A stretch of 64,000 bases of DNA from Clostridiales bacterium GWF2_38_85 (GTDB lineage Bacteria > Bacillota > Clostridia > Oscillospirales > CAG-382), in NCBI GenBank assembly GCA_001797275.1, contig MGOY01000006.1, positions 4,744-68,743 of the forward strand. The letters are read 5' to 3'. Numbering within the stretch: the first letter of the stretch is position 1; each line of letters starts with the position of its first letter. This document shows, piece by piece, positions 2-63,557 of the stretch. The notes under the pieces are model-generated. The model was not told the origin of the DNA, made no database searches, and saw only the letters and a program-made list of their open reading frames with translations. Position numbers and translations under genes: made by a program.

Positions 2-277
2 AAGTACTATACCGACAACGCAGCAGTCCTTGCAAAGCTGCTTTCCGATAAGGGCATCTTCTACACCGGCGGCACATCCTCGCCATATGTCTGGCTGGAA
101 TGTCGGAACAGCATGAAATCCTGGGACTTCTTCGACTTTCTGCTCGAAACCGCAAACATCGTCGGTACTCCCGGTGCAGGATTTGGCAGCAACGGTGAAG
201 GCTTCTTCAGATTGTCCTCCTTCGGCAGCAGAGAATCAACCCTCGAAGCAGTCGAAAGATTGAATAAATTATTATAA
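2..277 (+). CDS. C-terminal fragment of a PLP-dependent aminotransferase (LL-diaminopimelate aminotransferase-like); 5' end outside window
   Basis: Open frame from window edge translating ...GIFYTGGTSSPYVWLEC...GEGFFRLSSFGSRESTLEAVERLNKLL*; the FFRLSxFG tail resembles DapL-type class I aminotransferases. Confidence 0.5.
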   Translation, partial: KYYTDNAAVLAKLLSDKGIFYTGGTSSPYVWLECRNSMKSWDFFDFLLETANIVGTPGAGFGSNGEGFFRLSSFGSRESTLEAVERLNKLL

Positions 278-463
278 ACTCACATTATAATAATAGAATA
301 ACTCGATATGCTATAAATTTACCATTGTTTATTTTATACATATTATAATAGAATAATTTGGTTGTTTTCCCTATGGATTCTATCCTATATTTATTATATA
401 ATAAATTAACAGTATATTGTAACTTTGTGTATTATATTAAAATCATTTAGTAGAATAAATATA

Positions 464-31295: not shown

Positions 31296-32705
31296 TTACT
31301 GAGCGTTATTAGCATCAGTTTGAACTTCTGCGGATTCACTCGGTACATCACTTATTTTTTTACCGAGGATATCAGGAAGCTGCATTCCTGCAAGTGAGAA
31401 TACTTCGCCGAGCGGAGGGACAGACTTCATAAGGTTAGATATGAAATTAGCTGTTGAGCTTGTTCCATCTTTACCCGAATTGCCGCCATCCCAAACAGTG
31501 ATCTTATCGATCTTAATATTCTTGATAGCGTCAACCTGTACACGCATAAGTTCTTCAAGTTTATCACCGATCATAAGCATAATAGCATCCTTGGGGTCTC
31601 CACCGGCAGACTTAACCATTTCAGAAAAACCGGCAGCTTGTTTCTTAAGTATTTCCTGCATACCTCTTGCTTCTGCTTCCATCTTAGCAAAGATAGCATC
31701 AGCATCGCCTCTTGCTTTACGGCGAACCTGCTCAGCTTCCGCTTCTGCTTGTAATTCCATCTGGCGTTTTTTAATTTCTGCCTGAACGATGACATCAGCT
31801 TCAAGGGTAGCTTTTTCTCTTGCAAAACGCGCCTGCTCTGCTGTTTGTTCTGCAGCGTATGATTCTTCGAGTGCTTTCGCAGACTGAATTTTTTCTGCTG
31901 TTATTGCAATTTTCAAAGCTTCAGCTTCTTTTTCACGAAGCATAGCGTTTGACAACGCGATATTTCTTTTTGCTTCATTTTCTCCCTGTATTGCTGTAGA
32001 GTTGGCTTTCGCAACCTGGATACGTTGATCCATATAAGCATTAGCCTGACCGATTGAACCATCGCGTTCTTTCTCAGCAACGCTTTTTTTTGCATCGTTG
32101 ATAGCCTTTGCTGCTGCTTCTTTACCAAGTGCTTCAATATAACCCGATTCATCACTGATATCAGTTACATTTACATTGATAAGTCTTAAGCCGATTTTTT
32201 TAAGTTCGGTTTCAACATTACGACTTACCGATTCAAGGAATTTGTCACGGTCTGTGTTAATCTCTTCGATATCCATCGTAGCGATGATAAGACGAAGCTG
32301 ACCGAAGATAATATCCTTTGCAAGCTCCTGAACCTCGCTAAGCTTCAAGCCGAGAAGTCTTTCAGCTGCGTTTTGCATTATGCCGGGTTCGGTTGAAATA
32401 CCAACTGTAAAGCGGGAAGGTACATCAATTCTGATGTTCTGTCTTGAAAGTGCACTTTTCAAATCAACCGATATCGACAAGGGTGTCAAATCCATAAATT
32501 CATATCCCTGAAATACCGGCCAGATAAATGTTGCACCGCCGTGAATACAACGAGCGCTTTTCGCAGTACCGTCTTTGTTGTGACTTACTCTACCATAGAT
32601 AACCATGATCTTGTCTGAAGGGCATTTCTTGTATCTGCCCAGAATGGTTAGAAGAAGCATAAATGCTACAAGGGCAAGGACTACAATTAAAATTAAATCT
32701 TCCAT
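31296..32705 (-). CDS. flotillin / SPFH (band 7) family protein
   Basis: N-terminal TM, SPFH domain, then a long Ala/Glu-rich coiled-coil (AEQARFAREKATLEADVIVQAEIKKRQMELQAEAEAEQ), typical of FloT/YuaG-type flotillins. Confidence 0.85.
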   Translation of the reverse strand: MEDLILIVVLALVAFMLLLTILGRYKKCPSDKIMVIYGRVSHNKDGTAKSARCIHGGATFIWPVFQGYEFMDLTPLSISVDLKSALSRQNIRIDVPSRFTVGISTEPGIMQNAAERLLGLKLSEVQELAKDIIFGQLRLIIATMDIEEINTDRDKFLESVSRNVETELKKIGLRLINVNVTDISDESGYIEALGKEAAAKAINDAKKSVAEKERDGSIGQANAYMDQRIQVAKANSTAIQGENEAKRNIALSNAMLREKEAEALKIAITAEKIQSAKALEESYAAEQTAEQARFAREKATLEADVIVQAEIKKRQMELQAEAEAEQVRRKARGDADAIFAKMEAEARGMQEILKKQAAGFSEMVKSAGGDPKDAIMLMIGDKLEELMRVQVDAIKNIKIDKITVWDGGNSGKDGTSSTANFISNLMKSVPPLGEVFSLAGMQLPDILGKKISDVPSESAEVQTDANNAQ

Positions 32706-32878
32706 AATATCCTCCTATTTTTTATATTAAGCTTTTGCTTAATTACTCATTTAAAATGTTTAAAATAATAATCTTAAACCCGCATTATTTAATCCTGCTT
32801 CAATTCCTGATTTTGTACTGTCGATAAATTCACTTGCATTATAATCAGGCTAGTAAAAATCTGTCTTGGTAAAAATCA

Positions 32879-33221
32879 AACGAAGCTCTTCGATTATAAT
32901 ATTTTTTGCAATTTCGTGAATCTCATCCACTTTTAAACCAAGCAATCTTTCAGCTGCATTTTGCATAACACCCGGTTCAGTTGAAATACCAGCAGAATAG
33001 ACTTCCGGTAATCCTAAATCCAAATCATTAATTAAGAATTTTTTTCATAATCAATCGATATTTGTATAGGTGAAAGATCAAGAAATTCATATGCCTGCAC
33101 AAATGGAATTATAAATGCTGCGCCGCCATGAATACAAACTGTATTTTTCTTTGTGCCATCCTTACTTTGACCTACCATGCCATATATAACCATGACTTTG
33201 TCTGAAGGGCATTTTTTATAC
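32879..33221 (-). pseudogene. degenerate remnant of a second flotillin gene (5' region), truncated at the left end of repeat element copy A
   Basis: About 75% nt identity to 32270-32650 of the intact flotillin gene (...cagctgcattttgcataacacccggttcagttgaaatacc...); translation has stops and lacks the first ~25 codons. Confidence 0.75.
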
Positions 33222-33328
33222 CTATATTAAACTAATAAATGAATTACCTTAGCGATTTTGAAAAAGCCTTTTCTGTACGGCTTTTTCAAAATCAATAATA
33301 TCCTGATTCATTTGTTAGTTTAATATAG
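33222..33328 (+). mobile_element. MITE-like nested inverted-repeat element, copy A
   Basis: CTATATTAAACTAATAAATGAAT...AAAAAGCCttttctgtacGGCTTTTT...ATTCATTTGTTAGTTTAATATAG; terminal ~23-bp inverted repeats plus a central hairpin. Confidence 0.7.
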
Positions 33329-33398
33329 ACATAATCAATGCGAACATTCCACATATGACTACAAAGATAATTATGACAAATATTATATCTTCCATCTT

Positions 33399-34055
33399 TT
33401 ATCCTTCATTTCTTTTCTTTGCAAGCTCTTCATATAGGCTGGCCTTTTCATTGATCCTTTTCTTAGCACCAATAGCGGAACCTTTTTTTCTTGCAAAGTA
33501 CATTACTGTGTTCCAAATAAACATAATAAGCATCATGCACAACGGTATCAACCAAAAAGCGAAGGCTTTGATATATGAACCATAAATACTGTCTTCAATG
33601 AATACTTCCTCCAACGGAGTCTTGACATCAACAAACCCAAAGATATATGAAACTATATACGCAAGCGGATTAACAATATATGGCATCGCTCCCCTGTTCA
33701 AGAATGACATAAACCAGATTATCAGTATAGCGGCACTTACAATTATCTGCTCGGTAATCAGTGCGGATTTCTTAACTTCCGCCCTGAACATATATGCTCT
33801 TTTCTCTTCGATTAACCTGGAAGCAAAGAATAATATCACCCCTGTAACCAGAAGTTGAATGACAAGGTAAATCGGATAGTATTCCGTATAATACTGTATA
33901 TAGCCATTTTTCAACTCTAAAATACTATGCGGAATCAAGGCTCCTATGACCATTGAAATCAAATTACCTACCGTATCAACAAGATATAGTATAATTAAAT
34001 ATGCAGCAACAAACTTGAAGTCGACACCTAATCGCTTTGTGTTTTCGGAATCCAT
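33399..34055 (-). CDS. polytopic membrane protein, unknown function, carried between repeat copies A and B
   Basis: Probable start MDSENTKRLG (RBS-like aaaggat upstream); the longer track ORF begins inside the repeat's inverted repeat. Confidence 0.45.
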   Translation of the reverse strand: MDSENTKRLGVDFKFVAAYLIILYLVDTVGNLISMVIGALIPHSILELKNGYIQYYTEYYPIYLVIQLLVTGVILFFASRLIEEKRAYMFRAEVKKSALITEQIIVSAAILIIWFMSFLNRGAMPYIVNPLAYIVSYIFGFVDVKTPLEEVFIEDSIYGSYIKAFAFWLIPLCMMLIMFIWNTVMYFARKKGSAIGAKKRINEKASLYEELAKKRNEG

Positions 34056-34074
34056 ATAAAATCCTTTCTTTAAT

Positions 34075-34182
34075 CTATATGAAACTATCAAATGTATTAC
34101 CTTGGCAATTTTAAAAAAGCCTACACTGCATGGCTTTTTTAAAATTAATAATATCTCAATTCATTTGTTAGTTTAATATATA
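34075..34182 (+). mobile_element. MITE-like nested inverted-repeat element, copy B
   Basis: CTATATGAAACTATCAAATGTAT...AAAAAAGCCtacactgcatGGCTTTTTT...ATTCATTTGTTAGTTTAATATAT; same architecture as A, with loop changes that preserve the stem. Confidence 0.7.
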
Positions 34183-34194
34183 TTCAGCAAAATA

Positions 34195-34839
34195 TTATTT
34201 TCTCTTAACAACAAGCGTATTGTTGCCAGAAAGACCGATAACAACCACCTCTTCGCCATATTTGATCGGTGTTTCTTCGTCTGTTACAGCATCGATTTCC
34301 ATATAAGCACCCTGAAGTAAAGTGTTGATTTTACCTTTATCACTTCTTGCCGGAGGAATTGTGATATATACGGTTGCCGACAGACCGAGTGCGTTCTTGT
34401 AATCAACACTGCCGTCGCTTTGTAGCTTCATCATCCATTTGAAGATGAATGCTATAACAAATAATGCAATGGCACCTGCAACAATCGCACCAAATACTGA
34501 AAGAGCTACACCACCATTGTTTCTGGATATCATAATTCCGGTCCAGCCGAAAATCGAGAAGAATGCAATAATTCCTCTGAGTGTGAACAAATGAAGCCCG
34601 GGGTCTGATGCTGCATCAAAGTGACCATCATGAACGCCACTGCCATCTTGTGAACCATCAAATCCGTCATGACCGGATGCATCGAAATCTGAACCATCTT
34701 GTCCGACATCAGCATCACTGTGACCGCTTATTCCGATAGCAGTAAGTATAACCTGAACCAACAACAATACTGTTGAAGGGACTGCAATGTATGCGAAGAT
34801 ACGTTCAAGCTGTGTGAGGGATTCCCACCATTCAAACAT
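34195..34839 (-). CDS. NfeD-family membrane protein (flotillin partner)
   Basis: N-terminal TM, His/Asp-rich segment, TM helices, and a C-terminal OB-fold-like beta-rich tail; sits upstream of the flotillin gene as in nfeD-floT operons. Confidence 0.55.
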   Translation of the reverse strand: MFEWWESLTQLERIFAYIAVPSTVLLLVQVILTAIGISGHSDADVGQDGSDFDASGHDGFDGSQDGSGVHDGHFDAASDPGLHLFTLRGIIAFFSIFGWTGIMISRNNGGVALSVFGAIVAGAIALFVIAFIFKWMMKLQSDGSVDYKNALGLSATVYITIPPARSDKGKINTLLQGAYMEIDAVTDEETPIKYGEEVVVIGLSGNNTLVVKRK

Positions 34840-50861: not shown

Positions 50862-51078
50862 CCTATGTCATTTTTCGTAGAGCGCCTTGCTCATTTTCAT
50901 CCTTATTCCTCCACATCCACCGTCACGCCGGACTTAAATTCCACGGTGAATTTGTCCGCGGCAACCGAAGTTGCCGTGTAGACGGTGACTTTTTCAATCA
51001 GCCACCGGACAAGCGGCTCGTCATATTCCGTGATGGTGGTGAGCTGTTCTCGCAGAAAAGTGCCCATATCGGCTATGC
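50862..51078 (-). pseudogene. remnant 3' end of a large serine recombinase gene (copy R1) plus downstream att-like flank
   Basis: Minus-strand translation ...IADMGTFLREQLTTITEYDEPLVRWLIEKVTVYTATSVAADKFTVEFKSGVTVDVEE*; this resembles the C-terminal tail (DUF4368-like) of large serine recombinases; homologous blocks at 53740-54075 and 57565-57770. Confidence 0.6.
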
Positions 51079-51650
51079 TGCTTTATGTTTATATGCCCTC
51101 ATCGCAAAGATATAAGCCACAAGCATAATTCCGACGCACCACGCAAGAGCAACCCAAATATCATTTCCGACAGGTTGCCCAGACAGGAGCGCGCGGATGG
51201 CGTCCACTATCGAAGTAACCGGCTGATTTTCAGCAAAAGCGCGGACAGCCGACGGCATCGAATCGGTAGGCACAAACGCCGAACTGATAAACGGAAGAAA
51301 GATAAGCGGGTAGGAAAAGGCACATGCCCCCACAGCGCGGCCGAACGCGCAATCGGCATGGAGTGGAATCGTTCGAAGATACCGCTTTGCATATCCATAA
51401 ACAGACGGTAAGCTGTGTAGGATATGCCGCTTGCAATTGCAATCAGTAGGATGCCGGGCAGCAGGTAATTCACATAGTTGTCCGTTCCGGTTTTGATTGC
51501 GCCGCCGAGCACATAAACGAACAGCAGCATCATCGCGATAGGCGTGATGGTGACCGTGATGATGGTGTCCAGGCTGCGGAAAATATGGCGCATGGAACGT
51601 CCGAGCATCACGCCCATATCGCTGAAAAAATGTTTCTTAGTCGTTTCCAT
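51073..51650 (-). pseudogene. ABC-2 type transporter permease, frameshifted (two overlapping ORFs)
   Basis: N-terminal part 51207-51650 and C-terminal part 51073-51333 overlap in different frames; either an authentic frameshift or a sequencing error. Confidence 0.6.
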
Positions 51651-53739: not shown

Positions 53740-54075
53740 AAAGCACCCTATGCTAAAATTTTCATAGAGTTCCTCGTTTATTTTCAGGCTTATTCATGTA
53801 CATCCACCGTTACGCCGGACCTGAATTCTACGGTGAATTTGTCCGCGGCAACAAAGTTGCCGTGTAGACGGTTACTTTTTCAATCAGCCGCCGGACAAGC
53901 GGCTCGTCGTATTCGGTGATGGCGGTTGACTGCTCCTACAGGAATGCGCTCATATCGGCTATCCGTTTGCGTAATTCATCCCGCCCGGCACTTTCCAGCT
54001 GAAGCTTCTGCTTTTCTTCACGCAGGTGGTAAATTTCCTCGGCGACATTCTTGAATATTGACTTGCTTCCGAGAA
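53740..54075 (-). pseudogene. remnant 3' end of a large serine recombinase gene (copy R2) with an in-frame stop
   Basis: Minus-strand translation ...EEIYHLREEKQKLQLESAGRDELRKRIADMSAFL*EQSTAITEYDEPLVRRLIEKVTVYTA...; nt homology to R1 and R3. Confidence 0.6.
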
Positions 54076-57488: not shown

Positions 57489-57564
57489 ATAAATTTCTGA
57501 TGTTTCAAACTCCATATAGTAAAGGCAACCTACGCCCAAAATCGTAGAGTACCATACTCGCTTT

Positions 57565-57770
57565 TTATGTATTATGCTTCCACATCCACCGTTACGCCGG
57601 ACTTGAATTCCACGGTGAACCTGTCCTCAAAAACCGTAACCTTTTCAAACAACCGCCGGAACAAACTGCCCCCACTATCAAGTGGGGGTATATTTGTTGA
57701 TTGCGGCGGGCTGCTCTTGCAGGAATGCGCTCATATAGGAAATCCGTTTTTGCAACATTATTGATTGATT
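57565..57770 (-). pseudogene. remnant 3' end of a large serine recombinase gene (copy R3)
   Basis: nt homology to R1 and R2 (ccacatccaccgttacgccggacttgaattccacggtgaa...); the tail translates ...VDVEA*. Confidence 0.55.
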
Positions 57771-57929: not shown

Positions 57930-58178
57930 GTGTATTTAGATAAATTTATATTGCCCATAGAGGAAGAATCCTCATTGATAGAACAACAAGCTGAACGTAA
58001 TGGTGGTGAATTCGGATATATCGACAATACTTACCCCTGCGGCATTTTCTCAAAAAAACGGTTTCCCGAGTTTAGTTTTTCAAAAATTACTATTCTATAT
58101 GGAGGAAACGGCTCGGGTAAAAGCACACTTCTGAATCTCATAGCTAATAAGCTGGAACTATATAAAACTAATAAATGA
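57930..58178 (+). pseudogene. truncated AAA/ABC-type ATPase gene (N-terminal 82 aa only), ending inside repeat element copy C
   Basis: P-loop ILYGGNGSGKSTLLNLIA; the ORF terminates at TAA supplied by the element's terminal repeat. Confidence 0.6.
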
Positions 58179-58263
58179 ATTACCTTAGCAATTTAAAAGA
58201 AGCCTATACTTTTTGGCTTTTTTAAATTAATAAAATCACAACTCATTTGTTAGTTTAATATAG
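58158..58263 (+). mobile_element. MITE-like nested inverted-repeat element, copy C
   Basis: CTATATAAAACTAATAAATGAAT...AAAAGAAGCCtatactttttGGCTTTTTT...CATTTGTTAGTTTAATATAG. Confidence 0.7.
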
Positions 58264-58426
58264 ATACTAATCCAGTCGACATAAAGCAATGGTGGGAATT
58301 GGAAAACACAAAAGTGTACTTTGATTTTTTTAATAAGCATAAAAGGCTGTTTCTCGACGAAAAAATAAGCTATAAATAAAGTAACTGCTGGTATTGTCAT
58401 ATGATATCTATTTTTTATAGGGAGCA

Positions 58427-61381: not shown

Positions 61382-62397
61382 GTGATTCTTTTGAATACTA
61401 TAACATTGGGCAAAACAGAAATTATCGTAAATAAAAACGGTTTCGGAGCACTGCCAATCCAGAGGATCAACAAAAATGAAGCTCGTACTTTATTAAGGAA
61501 AGCATATGACAACGGCATAAACTTTTTTGATACCGCAAGATTCTATACAGACAGCGAAGAAAAAATAGGTTATGCCTTAAACGATGTCAGAGATAAAATC
61601 TGCATAGCATCTAAAACAATGACTACCAAGGTCATCGAATTTTGGGAACAATTGAACACATCCCTTCGCTTATTGAAAACTGATTATCTGGATATATATC
61701 AATTCCACAATCCTGCCTTTTGACCCACACCCGGGGACGGCGCCGGACTTTACGAAGGATGCTCGAAGCCAAAGCAAAGGGTATGATCCGTCACATCGGA
61801 ATCACAAACCACCGCCTTAAGGTTGCAACAGATGCAGCTGAATCCGGCTTATATGAGACAATACAGTTTCCCTTCAGCTACTTAGCAACAGTCAAAGAAA
61901 TAGAGCTTGTCAAACTCTGCAAAAAGAATGATATCGGATTTATAGCAATGAAAGCATTATCCGGCGGTCTGATAACAAATTTCACGGCTACTTACGCCTA
62001 TCTTGCGCAATATGATAATGTACTGCCCATCTGGGGAATTCAACGGAAATCCGAGCTTGACGAATTTTTATCATATGACGATAATCCGCCAGCACTGAAC
62101 GAGGAGTTAACTTCAATTATTGAGCAGGACAGAAATGCTTTGAGTGAGGATTTCTGCCGTGGTTGCGGGTATTGTATGCCCTGCCCGGTTGGTATTGAGA
62201 TACCCACAGCTGCAAGAATGTCACTGATGCTTAAGCGTGCGCCACTGTCTGTGTGCCTGAGTGATGAGTGGAAAGCAAAGATGGAGAAGGTAAATAACTG
62301 TATTCATTGCAATCAATGCAAAGATCACTGCCCATATGGTCTTGATACACCTAAGCTTCTCAAAAAGAACTGGGAAGATTACAAGAGATACATGTAA
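61382..62397 (+). pseudogene. aldo/keto reductase fused to a C-terminal 4Fe-4S ferredoxin-like domain; disrupted by an in-frame TGA and a frameshift at about 61711-61770
   Basis: AKR N-terminus (FGALPIQR..., DTARFY...); after ...QFHNPAF* the sequence continues in frame 1 as PTPGDGAGLYEG, then another frame gives MLEAKAKGMIRHIGITNH...; C-terminal CRGCGYCMPCPVG and CIHCNQCKDHCP. Confidence 0.55.
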
Positions 62398-62741: not shown

Positions 62742-62781
62742 GTGTACCAACAAATAAAGCGTAAAGGAGTATGCTGTAACT

Positions 62782-63557
62782 ATGATGAACCTTGTCCTAT
62801 TTTTAGTTGTATTCGGCGTGTTATGGCTCTTAATTGAAATTCTGTCAATTCTATTGAAGATAACCGGACTTGAGTTAAGTAACAAATCATCTCTATTTTA
62901 ACTCATACTGGCTTTACTACCCGGGAGCCTGAGCTTATTGTTCAGCATTCAACCAGACGCCGTATCGCTATATTAAACTAACAAATTAATTGTGATTTTA
63001 TTAATTTGAAAAAAGCTAAAAAGTATAGGCATTTTTCAAATTGCTGTAGTAATTCATTTATTAGTTTTATATAGTATGCTTATGATTTAAGCTACATAGC
63101 ACGGGTATCGTTAATCACCCTGCTATTCGATATGCTCAATGACGAGCAGCAAAACCTTTTAAGCATTCTGATAATTCTCTCGGTTGTGCTTGTTTTTATT
63201 ATTATCGTTACTAAAAACAAATACATTCTGGATCGATTTGAAAGGCTCGCTGAAAAAATACTGTCAAAAAGCATCAGCAAGAATAAAGGCAGTCGGATTG
63301 ACCGGATTCTTAATCTAAATTCTAATTTCAGTATATATGAAGTTGTCGTTGACAACGATAGCCCTATGTGTAAAAAAACATTAAGAGAAAATCGGCTGAG
63401 GGACAACTTTATTCAAGTATTGAAGATAGATCGTGGTTCTGAAATAATAGATTTCCCGACAGCAGATACCATCATCCTGCACGGAGACCGCTTGATTGTA
63501 TACGGAAAAATAAAATCAATATCAAAACTGGTTATGAAACAGGAAGAGAAAAAATAA
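62782..63557 (+). pseudogene. TrkA-C (RCK_C) domain membrane protein gene, interrupted by a frameshift near 62880 and by insertion of repeat element copy D
   Basis: N-terminal TM FLVVFGVLWLLIEILSILLKITGL; shifted frame reads TGFTTREPELIVQHSTRRRIAIL and runs into the element; the frame resumes after it as ...SLITLLFDMLNDEQQ... into the TrkA-C domain (track ORF 63132-63557). Confidence 0.6.
62968..63074 (-). mobile_element. MITE-like nested inverted-repeat element, copy D (inverted relative to A-C)
   Basis: CTATATTAAACTAACAAATTAATtgtgattttattaatttgAAAAAAGCtaaaaagtatagGCATTTTTcaaattgctgtagtaATTCATTTATTAGTTTTATATAG; inner arms are the reverse complement of copy C's inner arms. Confidence 0.65.

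Follow-up and report, generated by a model that had tools for sequence, protein, structure and literature searches.

The genome of Clostridiales bacterium GWF2_38_85 (taxid 1797683) harbors at least about 45 dispersed copies of a short repeat, which is very probably a non-autonomous DNA transposon (miniature inverted-repeat transposable element, MITE) that duplicates the dinucleotide TA upon insertion. Four of the copies, labelled c1 to c4, are located in the 64,000-nucleotide stretch of this metagenome-assembled genome (MAG) that was analyzed here, henceforth the window. The initial annotation had offered two readings of the repeat, a MITE or a structured RNA/terminator module spread by recombination; dispersed copies, a TA duplication and independent insertions, as expected of a MITE, were all found, and the precise TA duplications together with the reading frames that are restored upon removal of the element argue for transposition. 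An IS630-type enzyme is likely to be responsible for its mobilization.

The four copies of about 107 bp were present where the initial annotation had placed them, with the end of c2 corrected from 34182 to 34181. Copy c1 (33222–33328, plus strand) consists of a C at 33222, TA at 33223–33224, a 101-bp element at 33225–33325, TA at 33326–33327, and a G at 33328 (target CTAG). Copy c2 (34075–34181, plus strand; C, TA, 101-bp element at 34078–34178, TA, T; target CTAT) is the most diverged of the four, followed along the window by c3 (58158–58263, plus strand; C, TA, 100-bp element at 58161–58260, TA, G; target CTAG) and by c4 (62968–63074, minus strand and thus inverted relative to c1–c3; C, TA, 101-bp element at 62971–63071, TA, G; target CTAG). 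The terminal inverted repeats (TIRs) that had been noticed are imperfect and about 22–24 bp long (TATAWAAACTAAYAAATGAATTAC ... AATTCATTTGTTAGTTTAATA). When the window was searched with their 16-nt core AAACTAAYAAATGAAT at ≤ 2 mismatches, eight matches were obtained, which were exactly the eight copy ends (0.52 expected from shuffles). In a four-way alignment the likeness begins with CTATAT and ends with ATATAG, and the flanks beyond are unrelated, hence the copies are not pieces of one larger duplication. All four fold into a long hairpin on either strand (z-scores −3.7 to −11.7). The element (100–101 bp) has no coding capacity, and, read from either end, its consensus runs into a stop codon in each of the three frames within ~35 nt, so that any insertion within a gene truncates the product.

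Every copy sits at a gene disruption or junction, as had been proposed: c1, c3, and c4 break reading frames, and c2 occupies an intergenic gap. Copy c1 is inserted at codon 23/24 of an SPFH/Band-7 paralog remnant (32875–33395, minus strand), of which the N-terminal 23 codons (33329–33395) and ~116 further codons (32875–33221) are preserved and the 3′ part is missing. As a partial tandem paralog, this remnant corresponds to the 5′-terminal ~420 bp of the neighboring SPFH gene (32287–32705) and lacks the rest; it is 71–73% identical to positions 32287–32636 at an offset of 587–588 bp (repeats D3/D4). Copy c2 occupies the greater part of the space that separates the stop of a Yip1-like gene (34195–34839, minus strand) from the start of a gene for a predicted 218-aa membrane protein (33399–34055, minus strand) that lies between c1 and c2 and has no Pfam match. 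Copy c3 splits a short AAA/ABC-type ATPase frame (57930–58379, plus strand) just after the Walker A motif, in a frame that was already far shorter than the usual family members, and c4 splits a TrkA-C (KhtT-like) membrane-protein pseudogene (62773–63557, plus strand) with two more frame-breaking lesions near 62880 and 63090. Both flanks of c1 and of c4 belong to one gene and the frame hit by c3 runs across the junction, so these are simple, independent insertions and, together with the unrelated flanks, they dispose of the concern that the four copies might be parts of a single duplicated segment. The same data led us to reject c1 and c2 as the borders of a cassette or composite transposon (the two flanks of c1 belong to one gene), as well as an inversion of the 4.7 kb between c3 and c4 (the flanks of c4 form one gene and the frame at c3 is continuous across the junction).

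Some further features of these neighborhoods were recorded. The lesion near 62880 costs the TrkA-C pseudogene about 3 residues (ARF) relative to its homologs, and two overlapping ORFs close to c4 (61382–61723 and 61720–62397) are the pieces of a split aldo/keto reductase-ferredoxin gene. Between ~50000 and 58000 the G+C content is 0.42–0.47, compared with 0.30–0.41 around it; this block, which may be acquired DNA, contains PadR, DUF1048, and ABC-transporter genes as well as a ~200-bp repeat present three times (50872–51082, 53759–53968, and 57541–57749), and c3 is located at its right edge.

The initial annotation had left it undecided whether the TATA at both ends reflects a TA/TATA target duplication or an extended repeat, and reconstructed empty sites settled this in favor of TA. 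When c4 was excised leaving one TA (flanks joined as C-TA-G), the encoded protein read ...RRRIASMLMI... and could be aligned without indels to 13 homologs, all of which share the I, A, S, L, and M residues at these columns; the A-S pair is encoded across the rebuilt GCTAGT. Excision of c1 with one TA gave MEDIIFVIIIFVVICGMFALIMS|RYKKCPSDKVMVIYG..., which is colinear with MEDLILIVVLALVAFMLLLTILG|RYKKCPSDKIMVIYG of the intact SPFH paralog (31296–32705), 23 residues preceding RYKK in both; assuming no duplication, or one of TATA, broke the frame of c1 and led into stops. A third site was available outside the window, as another copy in the same MAG (L019:7205–7311) interrupts a UDP-sugar pyrophosphorylase gene; its excision yielded one Pfam UDPGP stretch (residues 20–319) with the junction at residue 78. 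Since the three frames (c1, c4, and L019) are restored only by removing the element plus one TA, the outer TATA is read as a TA duplication around a 101-bp element. Excision of c3 with one TA kept the frame open for 38 more codons up to a stop at 58377–58379 and extended the ABC_tran match from residues 51–76 to 51–85, which is weaker support for the TA duplication than that from c1, c4, and L019. These empty sites were all rebuilt from reading frames, and additional lesions are present in two of the three host genes; the other assemblies of the loci, in which natural empty alleles were looked for, all show the same arrangement or break at the MITE. The comparison of frames before and after excision thus indicates that the target-site duplication is the 2-bp TA, with the layout X-TA-[101 bp]-TA-Y.

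Target statistics were compiled for the copies of the whole genome. TA is found next to nearly all of them, and no direct repeat is visible beyond the TATAT ends. The commonest insertion targets were CTAG (12), TTAG (12), CTAT (7), CTAA (4), and GTAG (3), with the outermost base varying like the flank. After correction for the search pattern, C or G lies outside the TA in about 47% of the ends, so the preference is roughly Y-TA-R and often CTAG. Scoring all copies by frame class was uninformative on the duplication length because most of them are intergenic.

An ENA contig from a groundwater metagenome (SRR1658473, PRJNA268031) matches the window at 100% identity. An exact 20-mer TIR scan of the metagenome collection returned at least 60 stretches; among those listed, 38 belong to a single metagenome (Ga0209417), where they lie on large contigs, and L064 carries one more true copy. 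Proteins encoded on the copy-bearing contigs are identical to proteins of the Clostridiales bacterium GWF2_38_85 MAG, from which it follows that all true copies derive from one genome. The genome-wide search that had been suggested thus recovered at least 40 distinct full-length copies (105–107 bp) at unrelated loci of the same MAG, each with different flanks, on which BLAST, a TIR-pair search, and nhmmer agreed, along with ~9 further copies that are partial, internally deleted or diverged. The copy count is a lower bound, and the window's own contig is absent from the 60 listed stretches. Most copies are intergenic.

Two internally deleted copies (L009:1964–2037, 74 bp, and L056:1646–1725, 80 bp) kept both TIRs and lost the central hairpin; in addition, one copy (L018:5402–5499) has no right TIR, and a lone 22-nt TIR is located at a gene end (L033:7875–7897). 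Assemblies often break within copies (L064, L070, L073, L026, and L056). On L017:1–1198 (Ga0209417_1109467, same MAG) a copy at 19–125 lies inside an IS3-family element or at its end. That element has frameshifted rve-type ORFs (353–1063 and 192–377, minus strand) and inverted repeats TAGACAGTTGAAATAACAAAAA at 123–144 and 1150–1171; the MITE copy plus 18 nt of flank also ends contigs L026 and L056, and thus represents an assembly-graph junction. Outside the MAG, 16 human-gut loci from the metagenome scan (L003, L004, L014, L020, and 12 more) were rejected as copies, since all of them represent the same orthologous coding locus in Clostridium sp. CAG:451, a common gut species. The chance match there comprises 24 nt equal to the MITE TIR (CTATATTAAACTAATAAATGAT) at the 3′ end of a conserved gene, with no other likeness to the element. 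An exact 20-mer scan of the GTDB species representatives (n = 185,579) gave seven matches, which were chance 20–22-mers without wider likeness, and one of the viral collection gave a single chance match; no true copy was found in either.

Conservation differs between the parts of the element: mean pairwise identity is highest for the TIRs (94%), followed by the spacers (79%), the inner stem (77%), and the loop (70%). TIRs that remain 94% identical while the interior drifts are the pattern expected if a transposase selects the ends. The TIR helix comprises 24 pairs, with 92.8% of the cells paired, and contains two lasting mismatches (A.A at columns 7/101 and T/G at columns 15/93), which argue against a wholesale homogenization of the arms. 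At another locus, a twin with ≥ 99% identity exists for 12 of the 40 copies, and 21 copies make up one young subfamily; such near-identical sequences point to recent activity, presumably in bursts from a few master copies.

In the center of the element lies a second helix. In c1 the inner hairpin (33254–33293, plus strand) is formed by GATTTTGAAAAAGCC, a 10-nt loop, and GGCTTTTTCAAAATC, i.e., a stem of 15 bp that has an A-tract in one arm and a T-tract in the other. The core AAAAAGCC-N10-GGCTTTTT that the initial annotation had assigned to every copy is exact in c1 and c2, whereas c3 reads AAGAAGCC, which makes a G.T pair, and c4 contains a C.A mismatch (GCC/AGC). Likewise, the compensatory changes described there do exist, but they lie outside the 8-bp core, in the lower part of the ~15-bp stem (G:C in c1 vs. 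A:T in c2 at two positions). Folding the 41-copy alignment and checking it for covariation, as had been advised, returned a two-helix structure with 92% of the cells paired; both sides were changed in 8 of the 15 pairs of the inner helix, none of 500 shuffles reached the observed covariation score, and controls with slid partners paired at 38–50%. RNAalifold independently predicted the same two helices. The stem differs between subfamilies, its left and right arms being CAATTTGAAAAATGCC and GGCTTTTTTCAAATTA in the largest one (c3/c4-like), CAATCATGAAAAAGCC and GGCTTTTTCATGATTA in the subfamily of L024, L027, and L028, CATTCGAGAAAAACC and GGCTTTTTTTCGAATG in L031:3196 (related to L039, L054, L056, and L057), and the above arms of c1, GATTTTGAAAAAGCC and GGCTTTTTCAAAATC, in the subfamily that c1 shares with L016 and L036. 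The covariation of the hairpin is one between subfamilies, with few independent events, and arm-to-arm copying within a palindrome could also yield it.

A mechanism that would account for these features is as follows. An IS630/Tc1-mariner-type DDE transposase would recognize the TIRs and move the element in trans by cut-and-paste; the element would insert at TA, which would be duplicated, and a few master copies would be amplified in bursts. The inner ~15-bp hairpin with its A- and T-tracts may bend or fold back the short DNA and so unite the ends, or act as a weak bidirectional stop. IS630/Tc1-mariner transposases are known to bind the TIRs and to carry out cut-and-paste on their own, and they insert almost exclusively at TA, which they duplicate (PMC2170065). 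As the DNA searched yielded no autonomous element whose ends match, it is the 2-bp TA duplication by itself that argues for the IS630 family. The search for such a partner, which had been recommended at the outset, covered about 390 kb of the MAG and, for the metagenome, genome, and viral collections, the listed exact matches of the 20-mer, and none was detected. The copy loci contain no TIR pairs at the distance of an insertion sequence (IS), as the matches either pair at MITE distance or stem from truncated copies, cut copies or solitary ends, and no long repeat is common to the copy loci of the MAG. A tblastn search with an approximate ISY100-like query, which is a weak test, gave no match. 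The IS on L017 was rejected as a partner, since it is an IS3-family element that was itself hit by a MITE copy and is thus a target.

Several other explanations were weighed against the TA-duplicating MITE. The strong fold, the covarying inner stem, and the A- and T-tracts beside a G-C clamp would all suit a module that acts as a structured RNA or a bidirectional terminator and whose copies arose through recombination or gene conversion. Weak hints of such a role are that G.T mispairs outnumber A.C mispairs in one orientation (39 vs. 17) and that, of the 18 copies in tandem context, 12 are oriented with transcription and 6 against it, a bias that is not significant. T-runs of the hairpin are present on both strands. 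Precise TA-duplicating insertions within reading frames and TIRs that are far better conserved than the hairpin speak against such a module, and so do the genomic data, in which no enrichment at gene 3′ ends was seen (18 tandem, 9 divergent, and 5 convergent copies), a terminator scan of 32800–34400 did not call the hairpins of c1 or c2 (10-nt loop, three G-C pairs), and no Rfam match was found. We consider this explanation very improbable: the evidence does not favor a terminator role, and of the second option of the initial annotation only the structural part keeps some room owing to the covariation, not the spread by recombination. Even less credit, close to none, is given to REP/BIME palindromes moved by a RAYT (Y1) transposase or to integron attC-like sites flanking cassettes. 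REPs are 20–40 nt long and make no target duplication. The copies are indeed palindromic, multi-copy, and mostly intergenic, and c1 and c2 are direct repeats on both sides of one 218-aa gene, but an element of 101 bp with long TIRs and a TA duplication does not match the size of REP/BIME sequences or their lack of a duplication, its ends do not fit the attC core RYYYAAC/GTTRRRY, and c1 lies inside an SPFH-paralog frame whose N-terminus is located between c1 and c2, which is at odds with a cassette.

The closer competitors accept a MITE and differ in the enzyme or in the role of the hairpin. IS5-type elements prefer the target YTAR, and IS5 proper duplicates 4 bp. The Y-TA-R context of the insertions resembles this preference and no IS630-like partner with TATAWAAACTAAYAAATGAAT ends was found in the DNA searched, so the MITE could derive from or be moved by another transposase family, either an IS5 subgroup that makes short duplications containing TA or an enzyme that is unrelated or has been lost (in which case the family would be an orphan like Correia). 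This is unlikely, because each of the three reconstructed sites shows a duplication of exactly 2 bp (TA) and a strict TA duplication is a hallmark of IS630/Tc1-mariner elements (PMC2170065). Somewhat more plausible, and still doubtful, is an orphan MITE without a cognate transposase in its host, whose hairpin would be functional in its own right, through folding or bending in cis for synapsis of the ends or as a bidirectional stop or small structured RNA exploited by the host; if that were true, the family would be more than a decayed IS. For the TA-duplicating MITE that we prefer, the inner hairpin probably serves the element itself in cis. DNA of 101 bp is shorter than the DNA persistence length, so a bendable or extrudable center would help the two ends to meet; a role of the hairpin as a weak bidirectional transcription stop is possible.

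Judged against Rfam, plasmids, phages, GTDB representatives, and the literature, the family is most likely undescribed, as the initial annotation had supposed, and the element is of a well-known kind (RUP/Correia-like). That supposition is consistent with the absence of a match in Rfam, plasmids, phages, and the 185,579 GTDB representatives. No Rfam family reached the gathering threshold, with sub-threshold similarities confined to plant miRNA-precursor hairpins (23–28 bits vs. thresholds of 94–211), and annotated plasmids and phages gave no match at E ≤ 0.01, while what appeared on relaxing the cutoff to E ≤ 10 was noise. No paper was found that names Clostridiales bacterium GWF2_38_85, nor one that joins MITE, IS630, and Clostridia. 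The element adds a well-defined and, as judged from its near-identical copies, recently active MITE family to the Clostridia, for which few have been characterized, and its host is an uncultured groundwater organism. Three broken reading frames in the window and several contig breaks in the MAG assemblies are explained by the element, and the ORF fragments that flank its copies in the MAG are to be annotated as insertion-disrupted genes. Furthermore, its about 45 copies, with several subfamilies and compensatory changes, constitute a data set for the question of why very short MITEs keep an internal hairpin.

Among the known systems, the resemblance to RUP and Correia is one of architecture only, as judged from their descriptions. 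With IS630, ISY100, and other Tc1-mariner elements as well as the eukaryotic Stowaway MITEs, the element shares the strict insertion at TA and the 2-bp TA duplication; those encode a DDE transposase or have a known relative that does, whereas here only the non-autonomous form was seen. Correia/NEMIS elements of Neisseria are ~107 and ~155 bp long, with TIRs of ~24–26 bp and a terminal TA with target duplication, they give rise to long stem-loop transcripts, and their copies are found between and inside genes (PMC2229807). Size, TIR length, and TA termini are thus shared with the element of GWF2_38_85, but the Correia hosts are proteobacterial, the sequence is another one, and the IHF site, outward promoters, and RNase III processing of Correia are not evident here; a promoter scan found none in c1 or c2. 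The second counterpart, RUP of Streptococcus pneumoniae, is a 107-bp element with about 100 copies, TIRs, insertion at TA, and stops in all frames, for which mobilization in trans by an IS630-family transposase (IS630-Spn1) was proposed and which also inserts into IS elements (PMC2229807). In 2008, RUP was the only one among the reviewed bacterial repeat elements for which a transposase partner had been proposed (PMC2229807). It differs from the GWF2_38_85 MITE in host and sequence, in its TIRs, listed as 9 contiguous bp (PMC2229807) vs. about 22–24 bp, in the IS630-Spn1 partner, an equivalent of which was not found here, and in having no reported counterpart to the covarying central hairpin. 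Both are nevertheless Firmicute MITEs of the same size class with a TA target and stops in all frames, and the GWF2_38_85 element, too, has a copy in an IS element (IS3 family).
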